A stretch of 63,107 bases of DNA from IMG/VR virus record IMGVR_UViG_3300030104_000829, positions 1 to 63,107 of that record, one strand, 5' to 3'. The notes beneath the pieces are model-generated. The model did no database searches, was not told the DNA's origin, and saw only the letters and a list, made by a program, of their open reading frames with translations. This DNA comes from a virus (taxonomy: Duplodnaviria > Caudoviricetes). Numbering within the stretch: position 1 is the stretch's first letter; each line of letters starts with the position of its first letter. This document shows positions 1,391 to 63,107 of the stretch, piece after piece. Position numbers and translations under genes: made by a program.

Positions 1391-1588
1391 TCATCTGTAG
1401 TCAGTATTAGGTTGAATACTATTTGATACATTTTGACGGAATTGCCATTCACGTTTACGATATTCGTAGTCAGTACACCATTTTCTCCATGATTTACTTA
1501 CAGGTTTTTCACCCCATTCTGCTTCGAATTTATTTATTTGTTCTAGTTTTGCAGCGATTTGCTCTGCAGGATAATCTTGAAATTGCAT
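1391..1588 (-). CDS. hypothetical early protein
   Basis: 65-aa ORF with AATACTATG start. Confidence 0.65.
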   Translation of the reverse strand: MQFQDYPAEQIAAKLEQINKFEAEWGEKPVSKSWRKWCTDYEYRKREWQFRQNVSNSIQPNTDYR

Positions 1589-1592
1589 AGTA

Positions 1593-1727
1593 TTATTTAT
1601 TAGTTGATTTATAAAATTTTATTCTGTCTTGAACGTCTTTACGAGATATCTCGCCGCTCATTTGTTTTAGTATGTCGCTTGACATATCTATTTGTTTACC
1701 GTTAGGTAGATTTAGTATAAATTGCAT
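1593..1727 (-). CDS. small early protein (44 aa)
   Basis: AATACTATG start; MQFILNLPNGKQIDMS... Confidence 0.55.
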   Translation of the reverse strand: MQFILNLPNGKQIDMSSDILKQMSGEISRKDVQDRIKFYKSTNK

Positions 1728-1738
1728 AGTATTATATT

Positions 1739-1858
1739 TTAATAGAAATTATAGTATATATCTAACACTTTAGACTTTTGTTCATCAGTTAGTTTAGTAT
1801 AGTGCTTGTCGAATAGTCGCCAAGATATTTTTAGTAATGTGTAAGATTTAGTTGACAT
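1739..1858 (-). CDS. small early protein (39 aa)
   Basis: ATAACTATG start; MSTKSYTLLKISWRLFDKHY... Confidence 0.5.
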   Translation of the reverse strand: MSTKSYTLLKISWRLFDKHYTKLTDEQKSKVLDIYYNFY

Positions 1859-1869
1859 AGTTATATTAT

Positions 1870-2007
1870 TTAAAGAGTTATTAATTTAGTTTGGAAGCGT
1901 TGGTATACATATACTTCATCGAGTAATTCTTGTGGAAGAACTGGTAGTATTTCATGGTTACTTTGTAGCCATAGTGATAAGCGCGATATGTATTTTATAC
2001 GTTTCAT
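1870..2007 (-). CDS. small early protein (45 aa)
   Basis: ATG just downstream of promoter copy 3; MKRIKYISRL... Confidence 0.45.
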   Translation of the reverse strand: MKRIKYISRLSLWLQSNHEILPVLPQELLDEVYVYQRFQTKLITL

Positions 2008-2014
2008 TTTATTA

Positions 2015-2047
2015 TATTATCTGTGTTAGAAATTATTTTGTTTGTAG
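2015..2047 (-). promoter_or_regulatory. bipartite early promoter motif, copy 3
   Basis: CTACAAACA-N15-CAGATAATA. Confidence 0.75.
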
Positions 2048-2085
2048 ACATAGTGAGAATCGAACTCACTTTAACCATTATGTCT
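2045..2085 (-). ncRNA. anticodon-less tRNA-like minihelix (acceptor stem + GG loop + T-arm)
   Basis: AGACATA-ATGGTTAAA-GTGAG-TTCGATT-CTCAC-TATGTCT-A: perfect 7-bp acceptor, 5-bp T-stem, canonical T-loop. Confidence 0.7.
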
Positions 2086-2087
2086 TG

Positions 2088-2157
2088 CTCACGTGTATTT
2101 ACTCTGCCCAGTTAAGCCTGCTTCAAAGCCAAAGGTTCGGACAGTCACCCGTGTGAG
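2088..2157 (-). ncRNA. unknown structured RNA (interrupted rod)
   Basis: nested pairings CTCAC/GTGAG, CTGTCC/GGGCAG, CCT/AGG, GCT/AGC in a GC-rich intergenic island. Confidence 0.5.
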
Positions 2158-2177
2158 ATTTTATTTTGAAATGTAGT

Positions 2178-2408
2178 TTACTTTACTTCGACTACATTTC
2201 TTACTGAAACTGGTACGTTATTTGATGAAGTATAAGATTTATACTTGAGAAAACATGGCATAGTTTCTAGTTTACTTTTCATAATTTCAAATACTTTATC
2301 GTGATCATAAGTACAAGTTTTGCCATTTTTAAAGTTGACAGTTATAGTTTGATTTTTACCGATTAAAGATTTTCTGATTACGAATCTTTTAGAAATTAAA
2401 TTTTGCAT
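2178..2408 (-). CDS. hypothetical early protein
   Basis: 76-aa ORF after promoter copy 4. Confidence 0.7.
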   Translation of the reverse strand: MQNLISKRFVIRKSLIGKNQTITVNFKNGKTCTYDHDKVFEIMKSKLETMPCFLKYKSYTSSNNVPVSVRNVVEVK

Positions 2409-2447
2409 AGTTATTATTATTAAGTTATTATTATTTAGTTACATTTA

Positions 2448-2480
2448 TATTATCTGTAATGTGTTTAGTTTTGTTTGTAA
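2448..2480 (-). promoter_or_regulatory. bipartite early promoter motif, copy 4
   Basis: TTACAAACA-N15-CAGATAATA. Confidence 0.8.
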
Positions 2481-2532
2481 AAGTTGTATATTTATTTAAT
2501 TGTTAGTAATGTTAGTAAAGTACTGCACGAAG

Positions 2533-2616
2533 TGTCATAATGTCATATAGATGTCATATTGTCATTAAGACATATTGTCATAGTTATCAGTGACTTACTG
2601 TCATGTCAACTTGTCA
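2533..2616. repeat. cluster of 8 direct TGTCA repeats (iteron-like)
   Basis: TGTCA at 2533, 2541, 2552, 2560, 2576, 2599, 2604, 2612 in non-coding DNA. Confidence 0.75.
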
Positions 2617-2621
2617 TATAG

Positions 2622-2729
2622 TTATATTGTAGTAATAACGTGGACAAGAATCATAGTTAGACATGGTATAATAAAAGTGATTGTAAATATTAAACCGATT
2701 GTTTGAGTGATATTATCTTTTTTAAGCAT
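2622..2729 (-). CDS. small single-TM peptide (35 aa)
   Basis: first ORF after promoter copy 5; hydrophobic IGLIFTITFIIPCLTMILVHVI. Confidence 0.5.
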   Translation of the reverse strand: MLKKDNITQTIGLIFTITFIIPCLTMILVHVITTI

Positions 2730-2757
2730 AGTATTATTTTAAATTGTTTTACAGTTA

Positions 2758-2790
2758 TATTATCTGCAAAAAGCCTAAATCTGTTTGTAA
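2758..2790 (-). promoter_or_regulatory. bipartite early promoter motif, copy 5
   Basis: TTACAAACA-N15-CAGATAATA. Confidence 0.8.
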
Positions 2791-2907
2791 AAATGCTAAA
2801 AAAAAGGCTAGGGGTGGCAAAAAAAGCTAAATTTTCCTAGAATTACAGATAAAAAACGGGTAGGGGGAACACAATTGCTCTCTATTTGTAACGTTTTTTT
2901 AAAATAG

Positions 2908-2948
2908 GACATAAGCCTTATAAAGTATATAAGTAACAGTCTATTGTC
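2908..2948. promoter_or_regulatory. inverted-repeat binding site, copy A
   Basis: GACATAAGCC-N21-GTCTATTGTC; same architecture at 58646-58686. Confidence 0.6.
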
Positions 2949-3010
2949 ACACTTGTAAAAATCTCACTTTATCTGTAAGTATATATAATATAAGAAATTA
3001 ACAAAGAACT

Positions 3011-4647: not shown

Positions 4648-6204
4648 ATGTCAGACTTAATAGTCAAAAACCTTAACTTTGGTGACAAAGCTAGGGAAGA
4701 AGTATTTAAAGGTATAACAAAACTCACAAATGCTGTTAGCTCCACACTTGGAGCTAGCGGTAAATGTGTAATGTTAGAAGATCACAATGGTAAACCAGTT
4801 ATAACTAAAGATGGTGTAACTGTTGCCGATTCAGTAATATTGAGAAACCCTGTTGAAAACATGGGTGCTACACTTATAAAAGAAGCGGCACGCAAAACAG
4901 TTAGAGAAGCTGGAGACGGCACAACAACAGCAACAGTATTAGCGCATGCTATATTAGAAGAAGCTTATAAGGTTTCTAATAAAACAAACTCAAGAGAATT
5001 AAAAGAAGGTATAAACAAAAGTGTTAAAAAAGTAGTAAAATACTTAGAATCAATTTCAGTTCCAGTAAAAGGAGACATGCTAAAACAAGTTGCTTCAATA
5101 TCTACTAATAATGATGAAGTTCTTGGATCTATTATAGCAGATGCTTTTAATTCTGTAGAAAACACTGGTGTTGTTATGATGGAAACAGCTGAAGATGGAA
5201 AAACAAGTTTTGAAGTTATAGATGGAGTTCAATACGATAAAGGATTAAAAAACTCTCATTTTATAAATAATAAACAAAACAAGTCTGCTGAACTAGAAAA
5301 TCCACTAGTATTATTAATTGAATCACCAGTTGATACAATTAGACAAATTCAACCCGTGCTAGAGCACGTAATAAAAAACAATAAACCCTTGCTTATTATA
5401 GGCGATTTAGAACAGGGTGTTTTATCAGCTCTAGCAATGAATAAGATGAAGGGTAATATAAAAGTCAATGTTATAGACGCGCCTACATATGGAGTAAACA
5501 AACAGCAAATGCTACAAGATTTATCCATGCTTACTGGTGCTACTATAATAAATGAAGACTTAGGTGATGATATGGAGATGATACAAGTAGATCATTTAGG
5601 TTCATGCTTAAAAAGTGTTACCACCTATGATAATACTGTTCTTCAAATAGCTAATCAATCAGATGAAACAAAAGCTATAATTGAAGATATAAAAGAAAAA
5701 GTATTAAAAGAAAAAAATCCTAATTTAGTTATAAAATTAGAAAAAAGACTAGCAATGTTAGCTGCTAAAATAGCTATAGTTAAAGTAGGTGCTAATTCTG
5801 AAATTGAATTAAAAGAAAAACTAGATAGAGTCGAAGACGCTATTTGTGCTACTAAAGCTGCTGTTAAAGAAGGCATAGTTTCAGGTGGGGGTATTGCTTT
5901 GTTAAACGCTGCTTTAAAAATGAAAGGGAAAAGTGATGGTGAAAAAGTTTTAAGCAAAGCTATATTATCTCCGTATAAAACAATACTGCATAATGCTGGA
6001 ATTGAAAACAAAGAAATACCAGCAAAAGAAAAATATGGTATTGATGTAGTTACAGGAAATATGGTACATATGATTAATTACGGTATAATAGATCCGTTAT
6101 TAGTTACAAAAAGCGCTCTTCAAAACGCAGCTTCTGTAGCAACAACAATACTTTCCACTGATTGTGTAATCAATAATTTAAGAATAGATGAAAGCAATAG
6201 GTAG
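4648..6204 (+). CDS. groEL: phage group I chaperonin GroEL
   Basis: [32 protein letters not shown] motifs; no GGM tail. Confidence 0.97.
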
Positions 6205-35462: not shown

Positions 35463-38400
35463 ATGGAATTAGTAGAAAAAGTACAAGAACTACAAGCTAT
35501 TAAACCACCTTTAGATATCGATGAGATAAATAGAAGAATACAAGAGTGGAAAAAATCTACTGGTTATAAAGCACCAGAGGCGGTAGAAGTTAAAGAAGTA
35601 AAGACAAACGACTCCCAGACACAGGATCCGAGCTCGGAGTCAGAAGACAATACAGGATCCGAATCGGACGATGGATCTTCACAGCAACCACTTTTTAGTT
35701 TATCTTCAACATCAAGTTTGTCTAATAAAAAAGGTGGATTTGGAACAGGTGAGTTCGCTGGTTCATTAAATAAGTTTAGACAAGAAGAACAACAGAAAAA
35801 AATTAACCAATATACTTCTGTTGCTAAACCAAATGAAATTATAACTAAAAACGGTTATGATTTTAAGTATGATGAAAATGGTATATATTATTATAAACCT
35901 AAAGGATCTTCAGATGATAAATGGAAAACTTATAAAGATAAAAATGGTGCAGGTAATTTAGGTATAGCAGCTCAATTTGGTCATTCAGATTTTGACTCAA
36001 GTGCGTCATATTCCACAAGAAAGCAATTAAAAGAAGGTGAAGAAGTTTATAGTAGTATTGATGGTCAATTAATTATTACGGAGGGTAAACAATATACTTT
36101 GACTCCAGAAATGTTAGAATTAGAAAAAGAGTTTTTAGAAGCAACTTCTTTAACTGATAATGACAATATAGATATACAAAAAGATGTAGATAAATGGTTT
36201 TCAAAGAAAGTTATACCTCAATATAAAACAGAACCATATGTAGATCCATATTCAAAAACGGGTAATGTTAAGAAAAGAAAAGTTAAGACAGGTGAAATGA
36301 TACCTAATCCTGAGTGGGAGCAAGCTCAAATAAAATCAAAAGAAGCTTGGGATAAACTAGATCCCAAACCTACTGATATTTCAGAGCAGCAGTGGATTGA
36401 AAACAATATGAAAAAAACTTATACTGCTGAGTTAGTAGATAAGAAAGAAAAAGACAAACTAGAATCTTGGATAGAAGATCAAGATAGTAAATTTAACTGG
36501 AAAAGAGCGCTTCAGCTTTTTGGACCAGCAAGAGGTGCAGTTCTTGCCGGCGAAAGTGTTGTTGAAAAAGGCGACAAGCAAAAAGCAGTTAAATATATTC
36601 AAGATATAAGAAAACTTAATTTAGATAATAAAGAAAAAGATGCTAATAATTTTGCTAATTCGGCTAAAACTAGCATAGAAGCCTTAAATAATCAAATAAT
36701 TATCTTATCTAAAGCCAAATATCAAACTGAAGGGGAAGCAAAAAGAGGAAAGGCTTTAATAACTAAACTTACTGAAAAAAGAGATAAAATATTTGGACTT
36801 TATGAGTCTAAAATAGAGGACTTAAACACCATGATGCTTGAGCCTGAGTACAAAAACTTGAGCACAAGACTTGATTATTTAGAAAGAAATTTTAATCCTA
36901 TAGCTATTTTTGGTGAAAATGTTAAAATTGCCGCGGTTAACGCAGGAAAGTCTATACTTGATCTTGGACACATGGTTGTTAACGCACCAAATGCTTTTGG
37001 TATTACTGATAATCCTATAACATCAAAAGTTTTTAATGTTTTTTCACCTGGTGCTTCTTTAGCGGCTAAGTTTTTAAGATCAGACGCTTATACAGAAGCT
37101 AGGGGAAATTTAAATAATATAGTTGATGCTTATGTAGAGCAAACTTCTAATGGTATTGCTCATGCTCAAACTTTATCTGATTTAAAAGACGGTGATGATT
37201 GGGGTAGATATTTTTCAACGATGCTTGGAAGTCAGTCTATTAACACTGCTGTTATGTTTATGGGTGGTGGTGCTGCTTTACCTATATTAACAGGTCAAGC
37301 TGTTGGCTCTAGTTATCGCGAAATGGAAAAAGATAATGAAGAAAAAGCAGCTAAAGGTCAACCAGTTTTTTCTCCACTTCAAATGTATGGAGTAGCAATA
37401 GGTAATGGTATTTTAGAATTTGGTTCTGAAAGAATATCACTCGGTATAATAAATAGATCTAGAGCCGCTTTTAATTCTATGGGTCCTAGTGTAAGGCAGG
37501 GTTTTTCTCAACAAGTTGCTAGTTTATTAACAACAAAAGGAGCAACTAGAACAGCTAAAGGTATTGGATACTTTGGTTTGGACGCAACTAAAGAAGGTGC
37601 TTCAGAAGGTTTCGTTGAATTAGGTGGGAACATGTTTGACAGATATATATTAGGCAAAGATGTGAATCTTTTTGATGGTGTTCCAGACGCTACTTTTAGT
37701 GGAGCTTTTATGGCTAGTGGTGTTTATAAAGCACCAGCGTTATTTGCTAATGTATCTCAAATGGTTCAAGGGCCAGATAGTAATACTAAAATAGCTAACA
37801 ATAGGTCTAAAATATTAGAATTACAAAATACACTAATAGCTAATCCTAACATGTCAGATGCTAATAGAGCTAGATTAAACGATCAAATAGTAGATTTAAC
37901 CAGAAGCTCTAGTAATGAAATAAATAAAACACTAAACAGATTTAGTGAAATGGATAGATCTGAGATTGATGATTTATCTGATATAGAATTACAAGTAAAC
38001 AACAAAAGAAAGGCTATTGACGAAGTTAATTCTGATCCTAACTTTAATGATAAAGAACCTGAGATAAATAGAATTAAAAATGAAATACTAGAGCTTGAAA
38101 TACAAAAAAATAATATCTTAAAACCTTATATTGATGCTGATGCTAAACAAAGCAAAAAACCTAAATTAGATGGTTCAGGTAGTTTTACAGAATTTAATAT
38201 TCCACCAGTTGAATTAACTAATAGAATTCAAAAAGGTGCTGACGTTGTAGCTGATCAATTAGGTGATGTCGGTATTACTAGATTTGACACAACAGAAGAC
38301 ATTGTTGGAGCTTTTGAAACGTTAAAAGAACAAGGTATAAAGCTAGATGTAGCAACAAACGATGCTGGCGAGATACTAGATGCTAAAGACCAAGGGTATG

Positions 38401-41400
38401 GTATAATAGCTACTTTACCAGATGGAACTAAACAAATTGTTATAAACAATGCCTCAAGTGAAGCTGACGGTACTATACCCGCTGACAACCACGAGTTAAT
38501 ACACGCTTTTGCTAGTAAAGTAAATCCTGATCTTTTACTTAAAATGGGTATAGATTTAAAAAATAAACTAGATAACGATCCTTTTGTTAAAGTTGATGCT
38601 ACAACTAAATCTTTATTAAACGATTATGCAACTGACTTAAAAGATGGTAAAATAAGTGAAGCTACTTTTTATGAAGAAGTTATGGCTGTTACGAGTGACG
38701 CTTTAACTACTGGTGGTATTCAAATAACTGACCCAACTAAATTTGCTCAAACATGGAATTTTTTAGAAACTATAGGCTGGAATCAAAGTTTTAAAGACGG
38801 AGATCAAGTTATAGACTTTTTAAAAGGATTTAATAAAGATTTATTAAGTGGCGAAGGTTTATCGCAGCAAACATTAGATGCGGCACAAGTTGAATTAGAT
38901 ACTGAAAACCTTGATGAAGTTGACTTAGGCACTGTTAAAAAATCTAATAAAAAGCAGGAAAAAGTAGATAATGCAGCTGGACCTAAAGACGATGCTGGTA
39001 ATTACACAGTTACTAAAGCTGAATGGGATGCGGGTAAAGCTGATCAAGCAATAGGTGATTTATTTGGTAATAATACTCTTCAAGGTTTAATTGAAAGTAA
39101 AATACCTTCACCAAGTCAACAGCCTCCTGGTTTTAGTAAAGATGATTTTGTACAAGCAACCGTCACAGAGTTAATACCTCATATTAGAAACTTTAATCCA
39201 GAAGTAAACAATAGTTTATCTGGCTGGATAAATTCTCAATTATCTAATAAAATTGGTAATGTATTTAAAAAAGGAGAAGCAGGTACTAAAGATGTTTTTG
39301 AAGCAGATGTGACCGAAGCAAAAGGCGTTGTAGCTGAAACAGAAACAGAAGTAGAAACACAAGCACCTAGAAGAAAAAGAAGTCCAAAAGGAGATGCTAT
39401 TTATAGCTCTGTATTAACAGAAAACCTAGGCACAGATGTTGCTCCTGCTATTGAAACAGCAATACAGACTGATCTTAAAACGACACCTGTAGCTAATATG
39501 GCAGGTACTAGAAATATAGGTCCGGCTTTAGGTAGAACACTGGGAAAAGCTTTTGGTATTAATCCTAAAGTTTTTACAGACAAAAGACAAAACATACAGA
39601 AAAAAGATTTAAAAGGTTTAGTAAACTTAAAACAATATCTTAACAATAATGCTCAGCAAGATTTTAAAAACTTACCTGATGCTTATGATTCTAGTGGTAA
39701 ATCTACTTTTATACCTAACAACATATTAAATGCTTTATATGTTAAAGATGGAAAAGGTAAATGGAAATTAGATCCTAGCAAAACAGTTGCTGACTATAAA
39801 AACTTATTAGGTGATATAACTAGTGATAAACCTATATATAGAGCAGCAGAAGCTCAAACCATAAAAGGTTTAGCTGGATTATCTTTTAGAAATAAAATGT
39901 TTGAAACTGCTTTTCCCAAAGCAGAATTAAGAGTTGGTACTGGTGTTAAGTTTAGTAAAAAAGCAGATAAAAATAAAACAATAAAAAAACAACAAGAAGA
40001 TATTGTAGAAAGCTTTGGCGCTAAAGTAATAAAAAAAGGTAAAGAAGGAGTTAACAGGGTTTCAGAGTTTATAACTAGTGGTATGGTAGATGGTTTTGGA
40101 GATGCTACTTCATTGCTTTTAACACCATCAACGTGGGCTGGAGCAGGTAATAATATAGCTTCAGCTTTAAAAAGAGGTTTTTTAGCTATTAACGACGCTT
40201 CAAGAGCTTCAAAAAATAAAAAAGACTCTATAGATGGAGTTAAAAATGGTGATATACTTGAATTAAAAACTGTAAAAGGAGAAGTAAACCAAAAAACTAA
40301 TGTTAAAAACCTAGATAAAGATACACAAAGAGATATTAAAAATGCCATAGGTAGTCAAAAAGGTGCTGCTAAAGCTGAAAAGAACCAAGGACAACAAAAC
40401 TCTATTTTAAAAGGTAAAAACTTTATTCTTGATGGTATTAGAAAAATAGTTTTAAATAATAAATTTGATATAGCTGGTTTACAATTTATGCTAGGTAATC
40501 AAAATGCTAATGCTGGTTTAGCTAGAAACATGGCTACAATTAACAATGACGGTAGAACAAACAAAAAAGGTAAAGCATACGAAGAACATTGGTTTCCAAT
40601 GAGTGCTTGGGTAACAAACACATTAAAAGCTTCTGGTCTTAGTGACGCGGTGTGGAAGGGTTGGAAAGATTTGTCAAACGAAATTTACTATCAAGAAATA
40701 GTTAACAAAGATCTTCAAGAAAATCACTTAGATAAAACTTATGATGTAAAAATGCCAGATGGTTCTGTTGTAAAATGGAACTCAAAGAGTGGTTTGCATC
40801 CTTTACTAGACAATGCTATAAATTTAGGTTTAGAAACAGGTGATTTTAGTGATGCTAAGAGATTAGCTGATATAAGAAAATATCCTGGAAAAGATGTACA
40901 TACTGCTGTTAATCCATTTACACATGGTAGAAACGGCGTTAGTGATGCTGTTAGATATGATATTATAGTAAGTAAAGATTTACAATCAAATCCTAACATA
41001 CAGCATGCTACTAGCTCTTTAATAAATGAAATTATAATTGGAAAAATAACTTCTAAGCAAGCTCAAGAAAGAATAGACGCCTACGAAACAACAGCTAAAG
41101 ACGAAGTTAAGTCAAGTAAAAAAAATAATAAAACTTTTGGAGACAAAGTAAATCCTGATTCTACTATAGAAGATCAAATAAAAGATCTAGGTAATTATGA
41201 TAAAGCTGCAGACCTAGGTAGAGCATTAGATACTCCAACAAAAGGTATTAGTGTTTTTGATTTTGATGACACGTTAGCTAAAACAAAAGAAAAAGTAATA
41301 GTAAACAAAAGAGATGGTTCTACCGTAGAAATATCTGCATCTGAGTTTGCTCAACAAGCAGCTAATTTAGAAGCTGATGGAGCTGCATTTGATTTTACTA

Positions 41401-43922
41401 ATTTTGAAAAAGTTGCTGATGGTACATCAAAAGGACCATTAGCTGATCTTGCTTTAAAACGTCAAGATAAGTTTGGTAGTAAAGATATTTTTGTATTAAC
41501 AGCTAGACCTCAGGTTTCTGCTTCAGCAATTAAAACATTTTTAGATGGTATTGGTTTAAATTTACCTTTAGGAAATATAACAGGATTAGCAGACGGAACA
41601 CCAGGTGCAAAAGGTAGATGGGTTGCAAGTAAAGCAGCGGAAGGTTATAATGATTTTTATTTTGCTGATGATGCTGTAAAAAATGTTAAAGCAGTAAAAG
41701 AAGTATTAGATCAAATAGATGTTAAGTCTGACGTACAAATAGCTAAACAAAGTAAAAAGAAAAACTTTGATAAAATATTTAACGATATACTAGAAAGCTC
41801 TACCGGTATTGAGTCATTTAAAGAATATTCAAAAGCAAAAGCTCAAACTGTAGGTAAGAAAAAAGGTAAATTTAGTTTCTTTACTACACCTTCAGCTGAA
41901 GACTTTTTAGGTTTATTATATAAAACACTAGGTAAAGGAAAAGTTGGTGAAGCTCAAATAGATTTTTATAAGAAAAATTTATTAGACACTTACGATAGAG
42001 CTGAATTAGCTACAACAAGAGCTAAAATTCAAGCTGCTGCAGACTTTAAAAAGTTAAAAGGTAATTTAAAAACATTACCTAAAAGCTTAAGTAAAGAAAT
42101 GGGTTACGGTGGATTTACGCATTCACAAGCTGCAAGAGTTGCTGTATGGACTAGACAAGGTATGACTATACCTGGTCTTTCTAAAACTGATTTAAAAGCA
42201 TTAAATGATTTTGTAGATAAAAATGCTGAAATGAATACTCTTGTTGATGAATTAATGAAAATACAAAAAGGCAAAGAGTATCCAGCTCCAAGCGATAGTT
42301 GGTTGGCTGGAACTATTACCACAGATGTATTAAATGGTATAACAAAAGTAAACAGAAAAGAATATTTACAAGAGTGGCAAGAAAATGTAGACATTATATT
42401 TTCTGACAAAAACATGAACAAGTTGGAAGCCGCATACGGTCCTAAGTATGTAGAAGCTTTACGTGATCAATTACGTAGAATGAAGTCAGGATCTAATAGA
42501 CCTATCGGTGGTTCTAGGGTTGTTAACAACCTTTTAGATTGGCTTAATAACTCTGTAGGTGCTATTATGTTCTTAAACACTAGATCAGCCGTCTTACAAA
42601 CTCTTTCAGCAGTTAACTTTATAGGTGTTGGAAACAATAGTTTAATAAATTCTGCTAAAGCTTTTGCTAATCAAAAACAATATTGGAAAGATTTTAAGAC
42701 ATTAATGAACTCTCCTTACTTAGTTGAAAGACGTAATGGCTTAAAAATAAATGTAAGTGAATCTGAAATAGCCGATGCAGTTGCTGAAAGTTCTGATAAA
42801 CCTAAAGCTGCTTTAAATTATTTATTGAATAAAGGATTTGTATTAACTAGGTTTGCTGACAGTTTTGCTATTGCAACAGGTGGCGCTGGTTTCTATAGAA
42901 ATCAATTAGACATGTATATTAAGCAAGGTATGCCACAAGATCTTGCACAAAAACAAGCTTTTGAAGATTTTTATGCTATTGCAGAGAAAAATCAGCAATC
43001 AAGTAATCCAAGCAAAATATCACAACAACAAGCAAGCGGTGCTGGTCGTGTAATACTAGCTTTTGCTAATACACCAATGCAGTATGCTCGTATTATAAAA
43101 AGATCTACACAAGATCTAATAAGTGGTAGAGGAGATTGGAAGAAAAACGTAGGCACGATAGCTTTTTATGGTGTAGCACAAAACTTAATATTTAACGCCA
43201 TGCAAAACGCTTTATTTGCTGACGCTTTTGGTGAAGAAGAAGAAGAAGAAAAAGACAACAACAAAACAGGTAGAATAGCTAACGGTATGGCTGATTCTTT
43301 GTTAGATGGTTTAGGTATACAAGGTAAAGCTGCTTTAGCACTTAAAAACTCTTTAATAACTTTAGCTAAAGAAAATGATAAAAAATCACCTAAGTTTGTA
43401 AAAGCTGTTTATGACTTATTTGATTTTTCACCACCATTAGATTCTAAGTTTAGAAAATTAAGAGTTGCTGCTAATACTTTTACATGGGATAGACAGTTAA
43501 TGAAAGAAAAAGGATTTAGCTTAGATAACCCTGCTTATTTAGCTGGCGCACAGGTTATATCAGGTTTAACAAACCTACCTCTTGATAGAGCTATTCAAAA
43601 AATGAATAACATTAGAGGTATAATGAGTGAGCAATCTCAGAACTGGCAAAAAGTTGCTTTAGCTTTAGGTTGGTCAACTTGGGATGTTGGATTAGGATAT
43701 TATGGTGGGTTTGATCCTGTAAAACCTCTTACGCCAGAACAACAATATGATTTAGATGTTTCTAACATGAAAAAAGAAACTACATCTAAACAACAAAAAC
43801 AAATGTTGCTAGACTTAGGTTTAACAAGACAAGAGCTTAAAAAGTTAAGATACGAAGAAGATAGAGTTAAAAAAATAATTGAACTACAAAAAAAGAAAAA
43901 AAATGCCAGATCCAAAGAATAA
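35463..43922 (+). CDS. giant polyvalent cargo protein (HExxH peptidase, sigma-2-like, HAD domains)
   Basis: 2819 aa; NHELIH; FNPEVNNSLSGWIN; VFDFDDTL/LTARP/FADD. Confidence 0.75.
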   Translation: MELVEKVQELQAIKPPLDIDEINRRIQEWKKSTGYKAPEAVEVKEVKTNDSQTQDPSSESEDNTGSESDDGSSQQPLFSLSSTSSLSNKKGGFGTGEFAGSLNKFRQEEQQKKINQYTSVAKPNEIITKNGYDFKYDENGIYYYKPKGSSDDKWKTYKDKNGAGNLGIAAQFGHSDFDSSASYSTRKQLKEGEEVYSSIDGQLIITEGKQYTLTPEMLELEKEFLEATSLTDNDNIDIQKDVDKWFSKKVIPQYKTEPYVDPYSKTGNVKKRKVKTGEMIPNPEWEQAQIKSKEAWDKLDPKPTDISEQQWIENNMKKTYTAELVDKKEKDKLESWIEDQDSKFNWKRALQLFGPARGAVLAGESVVEKGDKQKAVKYIQDIRKLNLDNKEKDANNFANSAKTSIEALNNQIIILSKAKYQTEGEAKRGKALITKLTEKRDKIFGLYESKIEDLNTMMLEPEYKNLSTRLDYLERNFNPIAIFGENVKIAAVNAGKSILDLGHMVVNAPNAFGITDNPITSKVFNVFSPGASLAAKFLRSDAYTEARGNLNNIVDAYVEQTSNGIAHAQTLSDLKDGDDWGRYFSTMLGSQSINTAVMFMGGGAALPILTGQAVGSSYREMEKDNEEKAAKGQPVFSPLQMYGVAIGNGILEFGSERISLGIINRSRAAFNSMGPSVRQGFSQQVASLLTTKGATRTAKGIGYFGLDATKEGASEGFVELGGNMFDRYILGKDVNLFDGVPDATFSGAFMASGVYKAPALFANVSQMVQGPDSNTKIANNRSKILELQNTLIANPNMSDANRARLNDQIVDLTRSSSNEINKTLNRFSEMDRSEIDDLSDIELQVNNKRKAIDEVNSDPNFNDKEPEINRIKNEILELEIQKNNILKPYIDADAKQSKKPKLDGSGSFTEFNIPPVELTNRIQKGADVVADQLGDVGITRFDTTEDIVGAFETLKEQGIKLDVATNDAGEILDAKDQGYGIIATLPDGTKQIVINNASSEADGTIPADNHELIHAFASKVNPDLLLKMGIDLKNKLDNDPFVKVDATTKSLLNDYATDLKDGKISEATFYEEVMAVTSDALTTGGIQITDPTKFAQTWNFLETIGWNQSFKDGDQVIDFLKGFNKDLLSGEGLSQQTLDAAQVELDTENLDEVDLGTVKKSNKKQEKVDNAAGPKDDAGNYTVTKAEWDAGKADQAIGDLFGNNTLQGLIESKIPSPSQQPPGFSKDDFVQATVTELIPHIRNFNPEVNNSLSGWINSQLSNKIGNVFKKGEAGTKDVFEADVTEAKGVVAETETEVETQAPRRKRSPKGDAIYSSVLTENLGTDVAPAIETAIQTDLKTTPVANMAGTRNIGPALGRTLGKAFGINPKVFTDKRQNIQKKDLKGLVNLKQYLNNNAQQDFKNLPDAYDSSGKSTFIPNNILNALYVKDGKGKWKLDPSKTVADYKNLLGDITSDKPIYRAAEAQTIKGLAGLSFRNKMFETAFPKAELRVGTGVKFSKKADKNKTIKKQQEDIVESFGAKVIKKGKEGVNRVSEFITSGMVDGFGDATSLLLTPSTWAGAGNNIASALKRGFLAINDASRASKNKKDSIDGVKNGDILELKTVKGEVNQKTNVKNLDKDTQRDIKNAIGSQKGAAKAEKNQGQQNSILKGKNFILDGIRKIVLNNKFDIAGLQFMLGNQNANAGLARNMATINNDGRTNKKGKAYEEHWFPMSAWVTNTLKASGLSDAVWKGWKDLSNEIYYQEIVNKDLQENHLDKTYDVKMPDGSVVKWNSKSGLHPLLDNAINLGLETGDFSDAKRLADIRKYPGKDVHTAVNPFTHGRNGVSDAVRYDIIVSKDLQSNPNIQHATSSLINEIIIGKITSKQAQERIDAYETTAKDEVKSSKKNNKTFGDKVNPDSTIEDQIKDLGNYDKAADLGRALDTPTKGISVFDFDDTLAKTKEKVIVNKRDGSTVEISASEFAQQAANLEADGAAFDFTNFEKVADGTSKGPLADLALKRQDKFGSKDIFVLTARPQVSASAIKTFLDGIGLNLPLGNITGLADGTPGAKGRWVASKAAEGYNDFYFADDAVKNVKAVKEVLDQIDVKSDVQIAKQSKKKNFDKIFNDILESSTGIESFKEYSKAKAQTVGKKKGKFSFFTTPSAEDFLGLLYKTLGKGKVGEAQIDFYKKNLLDTYDRAELATTRAKIQAAADFKKLKGNLKTLPKSLSKEMGYGGFTHSQAARVAVWTRQGMTIPGLSKTDLKALNDFVDKNAEMNTLVDELMKIQKGKEYPAPSDSWLAGTITTDVLNGITKVNRKEYLQEWQENVDIIFSDKNMNKLEAAYGPKYVEALRDQLRRMKSGSNRPIGGSRVVNNLLDWLNNSVGAIMFLNTRSAVLQTLSAVNFIGVGNNSLINSAKAFANQKQYWKDFKTLMNSPYLVERRNGLKINVSESEIADAVAESSDKPKAALNYLLNKGFVLTRFADSFAIATGGAGFYRNQLDMYIKQGMPQDLAQKQAFEDFYAIAEKNQQSSNPSKISQQQASGAGRVILAFANTPMQYARIIKRSTQDLISGRGDWKKNVGTIAFYGVAQNLIFNAMQNALFADAFGEEEEEEKDNNKTGRIANGMADSLLDGLGIQGKAALALKNSLITLAKENDKKSPKFVKAVYDLFDFSPPLDSKFRKLRVAANTFTWDRQLMKEKGFSLDNPAYLAGAQVISGLTNLPLDRAIQKMNNIRGIMSEQSQNWQKVALALGWSTWDVGLGYYGGFDPVKPLTPEQQYDLDVSNMKKETTSKQQKQMLLDLGLTRQELKKLRYEEDRVKKIIELQKKKKNARSKE

Positions 43923-57254: not shown

Positions 57255-58022
57255 TTACACTATATCAAGCACTTGCGAGTGATCTACATTGTCAATTAGT
57301 TTTTGAACTGCTTGCTTTTTTAACTCTGAAACGCGTACATAATTACCCACGCCGTTCATATTTAATTTTACAGCAATTTGTTTTGCAGAGTGCTTATCAC
57401 AATCAAGACCATAACTCATACGCAGTACCTCGTATTCATTTTCATTAAGGTATTTTTCCATTAAACTTTTTAAATAAATATTAAGTATATGTATGTTATA
57501 AGGTTCTGATTTGTCTGCTATTTGATACATCATATTTTCTTCATCATCATTTGTAACTTGAGCATCAATAGACAAAAATATACTATTGAAAAATATTTCA
57601 ACCATTTTTTTATCTTTAGGATTTTTACGTATTTCATTTAGTTTATGCTCTGGTATACGTATATCACCTCTAGCCATATCAATACGTCTACGTATAGCAC
57701 CTTTAATACGTTTAGATAGAAATGATTTTAATGTTTTTTCTATATCATCTGACTCATATAGTTTTGTCCACTCTATTCTATCAACAGCTTTTGTTAAGGC
57801 TTCACCACCACATTGTATTATATCATTTATAGTCATAACACCTGATGCTTGTTGAGTTGTAGAGAATTTACGACCTAAGTTTTCAATTAAAGGACTAAAT
57901 TTTATTATGAGTTCTTCTCTTGTATATTTTTTATAATCTGAACCATAGTCTGGTAATCTGGCTAAAGACTGTTTTAAGTCTTCTTTGTACCTTATATAGT
58001 TTTGTACGTTATATTTCTTCAT
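57255..58022 (-). CDS. sigma70-family phage sigma factor
   Basis: region 2 (DIIQCG..AL..AVDR, RIKGAI, IRIP) and region 4 (VLRMSYGL, RVSELKKQAVQKL). Confidence 0.85.
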   Translation of the reverse strand: MKKYNVQNYIRYKEDLKQSLARLPDYGSDYKKYTREELIIKFSPLIENLGRKFSTTQQASGVMTINDIIQCGGEALTKAVDRIEWTKLYESDDIEKTLKSFLSKRIKGAIRRRIDMARGDIRIPEHKLNEIRKNPKDKKMVEIFFNSIFLSIDAQVTNDDEENMMYQIADKSEPYNIHILNIYLKSLMEKYLNENEYEVLRMSYGLDCDKHSAKQIAVKLNMNGVGNYVRVSELKKQAVQKLIDNVDHSQVLDIV

Positions 58023-62448: not shown

Positions 62449-62464
62449 ATTTATTATTTAATTA

Positions 62465-62497
62465 TATTATCTGTTGGTGTTTGTATTTTGTTTGTAA
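62465..62497 (-). promoter_or_regulatory. bipartite early promoter motif, copy 6
   Basis: TTACAAACA-N15-CAGATAATA. Confidence 0.8.
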
Positions 62498-62718: not shown

Positions 62719-62792
62719 GTGCGCCAGCAGGATTCGAACCTGCGACCTCTAGGTTATGAGCCTAGCGAGCTGACCAACTGCTCCACAGCGCA
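62719..62792 (-). tRNA. tRNA-Met(CAT), initiator-like D-arm, CCA not encoded
   Basis: TGCGCTG/TGGCGCA acceptor, GAGC/GCTC D-stem, CTAGG-CTCATAA-CCTAG, GCAGG-TTCGAAT-CCTGC. Confidence 0.92.
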
Positions 62793-62798
62793 ATATAG

Positions 62799-62877
62799 TG
62801 GAGGTGGACAGAATCGAACTGTCTTCCGTAATAATTCCTTTGCAGGCTTTTTACTACGTCAAAACCATATCACCCCC
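62799..62877 (-). ncRNA. minimal tmRNA: tRNA-like domain only
   Basis: GGGGGTGATATGGTTTTGAC 5' end, G3:U70, A73, 8-bp P2-like helix with GNRA hairpin, GACAG-TTCGATT-CTGTC T-arm. Confidence 0.8.
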
Positions 62878-62881
62878 CAAA

Positions 62882-62964
62882 AATACCACCTGTCACTACG
62901 ACTGGCTTTGTACAACTGATACCTCAAGGAAGCCAAGGCGTCGATTTACTGTTAGGGTGGTATT
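62882..62964 (-). ncRNA. unknown structured RNA (interrupted rod)
   Basis: AATACCACC/GGTGGTATT, CGAC/GTCG, TGGCTT/AAGCCA nested stems. Confidence 0.55.
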
Positions 62965-63107
62965 GCTAGCAATTCACTTATGTGCGTGTAATACACTTCC
63001 GATTTCCATAAGGACTCACATACACACCTAATTAAGCTACTCGTCTAGCTATTTACGCTTCACAACCGTGCACTACTATTTCAAGCTGTGATTGTTCTTC
63101 GCGCTAT

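Follow-up and report, generated by a model that had tools for sequence, protein, structure and literature searches.

The stretch of DNA analyzed here, hereafter the window, is a whole IMG/VR virus record (IMGVR_UViG_3300030104_000829) of 63,107 bases, rated as 98% complete. Between minus-strand genes of an early operon, this phage carries a small element shaped like part of a transfer RNA (tRNA). We call it the mini-tRNA, or module B. It spans positions 2045 to 2085 of the minus strand and reads, from 2085 to 2045, AGACATAATGGTTAAAGTGAGTTCGATTCTCACTATGTCTA (41 nucleotides, nt). Upstream of it, on the same strand, are a gene for a basic protein of 76 amino acids (aa), a hairpin, and a second structured RNA (module A). 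Downstream are a repeat of about 40 nt and a small open reading frame (ORF). Judged by its sequence, fold, and covariation, the mini-tRNA is a real, selected, and conserved RNA structure rather than a product of chance.

The 5' strand of the acceptor stem lies at positions 2079-2085. In the family, positions 1-6 of this strand are paired, and A7 is mostly unpaired. A 9-nt linker (2070-2078) takes the place of the D-arm and holds the GG at 2076-2075. The T-arm (2053-2069) consists of a stem of 5 base pairs (bp), formed by 2069-2065 with 2057-2053, and the 7-nt T-loop TTCGATT (2064-2058). Positions 2044-2052 complete the element. They comprise the 3' acceptor strand (2052-2046), the discriminator A (2045), and C74 (2044), which is conserved in the aligned and metagenomic copies described below.

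RNAfold predicts a nested two-helix fold with an energy of -10.8 kcal/mol. Shuffled sequences had a mean of -5.47 (z = -2.43), and equally stable folds appeared in 4 of 200 shuffles. The covariance model R1, which was built including the window sequence, scores the window mini-tRNA at 68.2 bits. The 41-mer occurs a single time in the window when up to 3 mismatches are allowed, and in 0 of 100 shuffles. A generic scan of the window for an acceptor stem joined to a T-arm found three elements only. These are the mini-tRNA, a reduced transfer-messenger RNA (mini-tmRNA, 62877-62800), and a tRNA-Met. The same scan gave a mean of 0.7 and a maximum of 5 elements in shuffled windows.

The standard tools did not report the element. 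ARAGORN called only the tRNA-Met in the window, and Rfam at its gathering threshold returned the same gene alone. Under a permissive threshold (E<=10), only the T-arm (2053-2069) aligns to tmRNA, with 9.5 bits against a threshold of 47. The mini-tRNA has an acceptor stem stacked on a T-arm, a UUCRANY T-loop, an unpaired discriminator, and a CCA-ready 3' end, as a tRNA does. On the other hand, it has no D-stem and no anticodon arm, and the cloverleaf of the tRNA family (RF00005) is absent. Likewise, the fold contains no helix between the linker and the T-arm, where tmRNA would have its helix 2. The preliminary description had claimed an acceptor/T minihelix with the GG of an elbow, without D-stem or anticodon arm, and with the same T-loop as the mini-tmRNA. 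This structural description is right, and strong covariation backs it. The generic scan finds TTCGATT in the mini-tmRNA of the window too.

Two sets of relatives were taken from IMG/VR. The first contains 80 loci found through the phage GroEL (64-99% identity), and the second 44 loci found through a sequence pattern of module A. A blastn search with positions 2220-2000 showed the mini-tRNA in L033, L024, L021, L068, L041, and L028, with compensatory changes visible in both helices. From the GroEL and module A loci, we aligned 18 distinct copies of 40-43 nt (alignment A1, which mis-gaps L104 at the 3' end). In A1, 91.6% of the cells are paired, versus 72.4% in shuffles, the former value being inflated because the copies were chosen with a pairing filter. 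Both sides changed at 10 of the 12 pairs, and none of 500 shuffles reached any of five measures. More precisely, both-sided changes occur at 6 of 7 acceptor pairs and at 4 of 5 T-stem pairs, with 100% of the T-stem cells paired. When the partner was slid by 1-3 columns, pairing went down to 26-52%.

The unfiltered test of pairing is the metagenome scan, not A1. In the scan pattern, the only fixed positions are T6, A7, six linker bases, the T-loop, and the G53:C61 pair, and at least 121 matches in at least 120 loci were obtained. Among the matches listed, 101 of 121 form all 5 T-stem and 6 acceptor pairs, 9 further matches form 5+5 pairs, and 11 do not fold. By our own arithmetic, the chance of full pairing is about 0.375^10 per match. 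The 101 fully paired copies among the listed matches represent 62 distinct elements, with 32 acceptor stems and 28 T-stems. G.U pairs are present in 15 of 61 distinct copies from the listed matches (18 pairs in all). This fits an RNA made from the minus strand only. The flanking ORFs are also on the minus strand, which points to a minus-strand transcript.

The invariant nucleotides in A1 are A8, G10, G11, T12, most of the T-loop, and the discriminator A. The 7:66 pair, in contrast with the rest of the acceptor stem, forms in 2 of 18 copies, the window included. Nucleotide 66 is missing in 28 of the 61 distinct copies among the matches listed; in the others, C (14) is the most frequent, ahead of T (11), A (6), and G (2). 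Because 7:66 rarely pairs and nucleotide 66 is often absent, the family, as aligned, is one of two forms (41-nt and 40-nt). In the consensus, the acceptor stem has 6 bp, A7 is left unpaired, and the T-stem has 5 bp. The seven perfect acceptor pairs of the preliminary description are thus correct for the window and do not hold as a feature of the family. Covariation in related phages had been put forward there as a check. The pairing is conserved in those phages, and compensatory changes affect both helices. Module A and the association with the gene of the 76-aa protein were absent from the preliminary description.

The mini-tRNA family is widespread. Its carriers are uncultured podophages that have Flavobacteriia phages as relatives and were encountered mostly in marine metagenomes. 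The large terminase of the window phage has 44% identity to that of Flavobacterium 'elemo' podophages, and phages of Cellulophaga, Tenacibaculum, and Maribacter were also matched. The window encodes a GroEL-like chaperonin on the plus strand (4648-6204, PHROG E = 1e-134). No cultured phage in the collection searched exceeds 41% identity to this GroEL, which leaves the clade there without a cultured representative. A blastn search of window positions 1500-3000 against 50,697 phage records gave zero matches, as did model R1 against MW202828.1 and NC_055854.1. The exact linker and T-loop pattern retrieved 10 loci in IMG/VR. None had a complementary acceptor stem, and we discarded them as chance.

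The ends of the mini-tRNA resemble those of a tRNA. In 17 of 18 A1 copies, the nucleotide at -1 is unable to pair with A73. With -1 and A73 unpaired, 1:72 is always the last pair of the helix. All 18 A1 copies have C74, and the trailer is CTA in 13, CAA in 4, and CTT in 1. Among the matches listed, A73 appears in 87 and C74 in 94 of the 101 fully paired copies. The window trailer after the mini-tRNA is CAAACAAA, and an N73-CTA trailer is common to the mini-tRNA, the tRNA-Met, and the mini-tmRNA of the window. Rfam aligns the CTA-type trailer of the mini-tmRNA to the ACCA of tmRNA. Since the trailer is CTA-type and CCA is not encoded, CCA would need to be completed after transcription, as for the true tRNA of the phage.

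We give about an even chance to the reading that we favor. According to it, the mini-tRNA would be a tRNA-like unit whose maturation involves RNase P, trimming at the 3' end, and the addition of CCA. This would cut the transcript and release the minihelix. The 5' end would arise from a cut by host RNase P between 2086 and 2085. At the other end, a 3' activity would trim back to A2045 or C2044, and the host CCA-adding enzyme would then complete the end. The phage has no CCA-adding family gene of its own. In the window, this processing would sever the upstream transcript, which consists of ORF76, the hairpin, and module A. It would thereby give module A a defined 3' end, and it would free the downstream message. 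A stable minihelix of about 41-44 nt would be released, and its GG linker could close an elbow.

We infer these cleavages and the CCA addition from indirect support. The helix stops at 1:72 and is followed by A73-C74, as in the phage tRNA. The mini-tRNA is intergenic, on the coding strand, and directly after a structured RNA module. Finally, related tRNA-like genes stand in tight tandem with a true tRNA. Of the two functions put forward in the preliminary description, a processing signal and a decoy, it is the processing signal that these features support indirectly. The activity itself has precedents. According to excerpts of PMC11143913, the RNA of RNase P cuts model hairpins built from an acceptor stem, a T-stem, and a T-loop, and the cut falls at the canonical site. 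Likewise, excerpts of PMC4201824 describe a bacterial Y RNA that is tRNA-like and has an acceptor stem of 7 bp; in vivo, RNase P cuts this RNA, and CCA is added to it.

The element might instead be a non-functional remnant, such as a tRNA or tmRNA gene without its middle, or it might act at the DNA level as an attachment site or terminator. The T-loop shared with the mini-tmRNA of the same genome speaks for a remnant, as do longer versions with inserts of 22-44 nt. However, compensatory changes have affected both helices in many lineages, and G.U pairs are functional on one strand only. We consider this explanation very improbable. An attachment site in a tRNA gene was rejected, given that the integrase family search of the phage gave no match and that both acceptor strands are present and covarying. 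An intrinsic terminator was also rejected. The trailer CAAACAAA has no U-tract, and a terminator scan of 1700-2700 found 0 terminator-like sites.

The mini-tRNA is not the only tRNA-like gene of these phages. The mini-tmRNA of the window (62796-62877, minus strand, 82 nt) is reduced to the tRNA-like domain and scores 64.7 bits on the Rfam tmRNA model (gathering 47), with 304 model positions missing. It retains G3.U70, the D-loop analogue, and the T-arm, and its helix 2 is short and has a small loop. A default-filter Rfam scan of the whole window did not pick it up. Reduced tmRNAs of relatives score 53-64 bits on the same model. Six nt 3' of the mini-tmRNA is the tRNA-Met (CAT anticodon; 62719-62792, minus strand), which has U1-A72, a C discriminator, and a CTA trailer. 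In L121, three tRNA-like genes, the last being tRNA-Met, are separated by spacers of 4 and 8 nt. With such short spacers in L121 (4 and 8 nt) and the window (6 nt), the genes are arranged as in a tRNA operon. The roughly 200 nt immediately upstream of the mini-tmRNA (62880-63075, minus strand) are GC-richer, contain no long ORF, and look structured.

Related loci also carry anticodon-less acceptor/T-arm genes of 54, 73, and 76 nt with conserved inserts (22-44 nt). Several anticodon-less types in these loci have G3.U70. In L123, L099, and L120, the 41-nt copy and a longer tRNA-like gene of the same locus have a common acceptor stem. The 76-nt gene of L123 (999-1074, plus strand) shows an almost invariant 44-nt insert and a covarying acceptor stem. 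The same type is present in L047, L069, L071, L096, L099, L102, L103, L120, and L130. In many cases, the 41-nt copy of the locus has the acceptor stem of this gene. ARAGORN was silent on the 76-nt type in L047, L069, and L071, the carriers among the loci scanned.

A further reading is aminoacylation. After CCA addition, a host aminoacyl-tRNA synthetase could load the minihelix through the identity of the acceptor stem alone, and the charged RNA would donate or sequester an amino acid. This would suit the two different tRNA-like genes with one acceptor stem in a locus. It would also suit G2:C71 in 17 of 18 A1 copies, a 1:72 pair that is always A-U or U-A, and the A73 of 87 of the 101 fully paired copies among the matches listed. 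G3.U70 is the one identity element known to be sufficient for the charging of a minihelix. It is absent from the window copy, where 3:70 is A-U; in A1, this pair is AU in 11, UA in 4, GU in 1, and UG in 1 of 18. Moreover, the acceptor stems are diverse, with at least 32 versions. Charging therefore seems improbable to us.

Directly 5' of the mini-tRNA is module A (2088-2157, minus strand), a GC-rich structured RNA of 70 nt found only in phages. Its outer stem joins 2157-2153 with 2092-2088, and its core (2149-2104) has a covarying inner stem. The core pattern matched 44 IMG/VR loci. With the window, these make 39 distinct contexts, of which one is chance-like and 38 are related. One pair of the inner stem is GC, AU, or CG, the next is UG, UA, or AU, and 0 of 27 sequences break the stem. 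By eye, the outer 5-bp stem has five sequence versions, and the inner stem of 3-4 bp varies with compensation. The asymmetric internal loop is strictly conserved.

Outside viruses, the pattern was searched in 185,579 bacterial and archaeal species genomes (596 billion bases). Of its 25 loci there, 23 have no complementary stem. The 2 true matches are contigs of 1.4 kb and 0.6 kb, both with the mini-tRNA following module A. They look like phage DNA binned into metagenome-assembled genomes. A scanner found a tRNA-like element within 57 nt past module A in 26 of the 39 contexts, and 3 more carry the 40-nt form as judged by eye. Conversely, module A is upstream of the mini-tRNA in only 9 of 54 copies among the matches listed.

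Module A has no Rfam family match. We considered a riboswitch, a ribozyme, a kink-turn, a structure like that of the signal recognition particle RNA, and an mRNA-like tag. All were rejected: Rfam gave no hit, reading frames lack conservation, and by eye none of the motifs fits. Pairing between the two modules was likewise rejected. Module A 2149-2145 with the 3' strand of the T-stem, and module A CGAAC with the T-loop, give 4-5 nt only and no consistent covariation.

A Y-RNA-like particle, as in bacterial YrlA, would have module A as the part that binds Ro60 and the minihelix as the tRNA-like part. Module A of the window contains GTCCGAA, which recalls the conserved Y-RNA helix. Nevertheless, the first two bases of this motif belong to the covarying stem, and module A is found before few mini-tRNAs (the 9 of 54 listed copies given above). 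No TROVE/Ro60 match was obtained in the 98%-complete record, while the controls matched in 2 genomes, and no RtcB gene was found in the phage. The Rfam search gave no Y-RNA family even at E<=10. Excerpts of PMC4201824 describe a YrlA tRNA-like domain that RNase P can cleave and that can gain CCA, which would agree with such a particle. The motif GNCGAAN0-1G in the same excerpts is unmatched, as module A reads N-C-C-G-A-A-C-C, with a non-G two places before CGAA. A Y-RNA-like particle is scarcely probable.

The gene for the 76-aa protein (ORF76; 2178-2408, minus strand) precedes the mini-tRNA in most phages that carry it. Among the matches listed, 71 copies could be evaluated, and in 48 of them a homologue on the same strand has its end fewer than 600 nt upstream. 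In 35 of 54 listed copies, ORF76 belongs to the three nearest homologues. The protein has 27 invariant columns in 26 sequences. It has no PHROG or Pfam family match. Its AlphaFold model has a predicted local distance difference test (pLDDT) score of 88.9. Foldseek found nothing in PDB at E<=0.001, and the wide VIA-align search gave a best Z of 3.6 with no fold match. In the ESM Atlas, only unnamed viral clusters below 0.9 were obtained. A hairpin (2169-2199, minus strand) covers the ORF76 stop codon (2180-2178). Its arms vary yet stay complementary in relatives, by eye, and it has no U-tract.

On the other side, a promoter/leader-like repeat of about 40 nt (2008-2046, minus strand) extends from the mini-tRNA's 3' end to the next ATG. 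The minus strand has further copies at 141-179, 1222-1261, and 62456-62496, and an ATG follows closely after every one of them. The repeat precedes the ATGs of small early genes and is kept in relatives too. It is likely an early promoter or leader. The downstream ORF (1870-2007, minus strand) encodes 45 aa and has its ATG 37 nt past the discriminator. The distance to the next same-strand ATG was counted over 19 contexts (L098 and L119 were left out). It is 15-29 nt past the discriminator in 11 of 19, of which 5 are one lineage. In 5 of 19, the window among them, the repeat intervenes and the ATG is at 37-54 nt. The remaining 3 of 19 have it at 68-140 nt.

Other leaders were observed as well. 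A motif of about 40 nt with GTTCCACTTGT and a TATAA-like box is upstream of the mini-tRNA in L188, L197, L205, L256, and L170, and upstream of module A in L104, L117, and L121. It may be an own promoter of the RNA genes. In L187, L228, L113, L175, L194, and L200, the mini-tRNA is preceded by a small hairpin and then an A-rich tail (TAAATA...GTTGAA type), which is similar to the one at the 3' end of module A.

Several results weigh against the processing reading. The slot 3' of ORF76 is a hot spot, with cargo that differs between relatives. L016 and L022, whose GroEL is 97% identical, have nothing at the mini-tRNA site. L015 (GroEL 99%) carries a different 44-nt mini-tRNA, and so does L088. Long tRNA-like genes occupy the slot in L019, L043, and others. 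As close relatives do without the mini-tRNA, it is dispensable for the expression of the flanking genes. In addition, A7 is mostly unpaired or faces a mismatch, unlike in the canonical 12-bp acceptor/T stack, and the pairing filter of A1 noted above counts on this side too. Contigs of 3 RNA or RNA-labeled runs, mostly from 85-95% relatives, had none on 2005-2338, which is uninformative either way. The invariant linker bases, the tight link with ORF76 (48 of 71 listed copies), and the acceptor stem shared with a longer gene in L123, L099, and L120 go beyond the need of a bare cleavage signal. They hint at a role for the RNA itself.

Such a role could be that of a tRNA mimic acting in trans. The minihelix, alone or with ORF76, would titrate or redirect a reader of the acceptor, T-arm, and elbow or of the CCA end. 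Candidates are an acceptor-end-directed defense toxin, SmpB or EF-Tu, and a ribonuclease, and processing would be only the production route. In the linker, the bases that would close the elbow do not vary, and an ORF76 homologue accompanies most copies (the fractions of listed matches given above). The locus turns over fast and exchanges tRNA-like cargos between close relatives, as accessory or arms-race loci do. The same phages also carry a reduced tmRNA and several other anticodon-less tRNA-like genes. There is a phage precedent as well: excerpts of PMC11662646 describe AcrIIIA1 as a phage protein acting in complex with t(m)RNA fragments.

Still, the mimic has no known target, and ORF76 lacks a family or fold match. 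No RtcB, SmpB, CCA-adding/poly(A) polymerase family, RNA ligase, or tRNA-repair gene was found in the phage; together with the absence of a Ro60 match, this also speaks against it. We hold the trans-acting mimic as a tentative possibility. A mimic would account for the invariance of the linker, the linkage with the gene, and the fast turnover, and processing as the maturation route is compatible with it.

A more specific form of this idea, rather doubtful at present, is that ORF76 and the mini-tRNA make up a dedicated two-part module. It would act in trans on host tRNA, ribosome rescue, RNA surveillance, or a tRNA-directed defense. The mini-tRNA would then be one member of an undescribed 'tRNA-scaffold' RNA repertoire, matured as a whole by the tRNA pathway. 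This repertoire would include the empty 40/41-nt forms, the 54-76-nt forms with inserts, and the reduced tmRNAs. If the RNA does act in trans, it would represent a novel kind of RNA-based host manipulation or counter-defense.

Other features of the window were recorded. A weak sigma-factor-like protein is encoded at 57255-58022 (minus strand), and a protein of 2,819 aa without family match at 35463-43922 (plus strand). An open-ended minus-strand ORF at 2-133 would, by eye, continue over the record ends (1-133, 63076-63107) and stop 11 codons on. This reading across the ends suggests that the linear record is a permuted circle or a cut concatemer.

Whatever its role, the mini-tRNA is a minimal natural substrate for asking what the acceptor, T-arm, and elbow alone do in a cell. 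An uncultured podophage clade carries a whole set of anticodon-less tRNA-shaped RNAs. Since tRNA finders miss such RNAs, the 'tRNA' counts of phages understate them. A natural 'top-half-only' tRNA gene of 40-41 nt from DNA phages is absent from Rfam 15, and a full-text literature search found no description of such phage minihelices. The kind itself is known, as tRNA-like units that borrow tRNA-processing enzymes exist in eukaryotic long non-coding RNAs, organelles, some animal and plant viruses, and bacterial Y RNAs. The mini-tRNA family, its minimal form, the phage setting, and its partners are neither in Rfam 15 nor in the literature that the full-text search returned.

Among these systems, mascRNA, from the 3' end of MALAT1, and the MEN-beta tRNA-like RNA show a similar arrangement. 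There, cleavage by RNase P both creates the upstream RNA's 3' end and liberates a small RNA with a CCA tail. Like mascRNA, the mini-tRNA is placed directly downstream of a structured non-coding RNA. However, mascRNA is a eukaryotic cloverleaf with an anticodon-like arm. The mini-tRNA has no D-stem or anticodon arm and belongs to a phage operon, and its processing is a prediction. Viral examples are the TMER transcripts of murine gammaherpesvirus 68 and the stable RNAs of the phage T4 tRNA cluster. They are tRNA-like, processed, CCA-tailed, and non-decoding, and they are linked to small RNAs. These RNAs are full cloverleaf-like or larger, and their module order and hosts differ from those of the mini-tRNA.

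The tRNA-like domain of tmRNA, including the 82-nt one of the window, shares with the mini-tRNA an identical T-loop, an AUGGUU-type D-loop analogue, A73, and a CTA-type trailer. The hallmarks of tmRNA are the alanine identity pair G3.U70 and a helix 2 after the D-loop analogue. The mini-tRNA differs in both respects, and only its T-arm aligns to the family (the 9.5 versus 47 bits given above).

In mitochondria, intergenic tRNAs set mRNA ends through tRNA-processing enzymes (tRNA punctuation). Plant mitochondrial t-elements likewise are intergenic tRNA-like units by which these enzymes define the 5' and 3' ends of mRNAs, according to excerpts of PMC1920247. They belong to another lineage and differ in sequence, and the phage mini-tRNA is far more uniform and has a conserved protein-gene neighbor. 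YrlA and other Y RNAs, as excerpted from PMC4201824, are non-coding and have a tRNA-like domain, and the version of M. smegmatis is cut by RNase P and gains CCA. In those excerpts, YrlA keeps D-arm and T-arm mimics within a Ro-binding stem, whereas the mini-tRNA has no D-stem and its phage has no Ro60 gene or motif. The RNase P model hairpins of McClain, Guerrier-Takada and Altman, as cited in excerpts of PMC11143913, share the architecture of the mini-tRNA, a single acceptor/T-arm hairpin. Those hairpins, as described there, are synthetic. The mini-tRNA is natural and conserved, has a GG linker, and usually leaves A7 unpaired.

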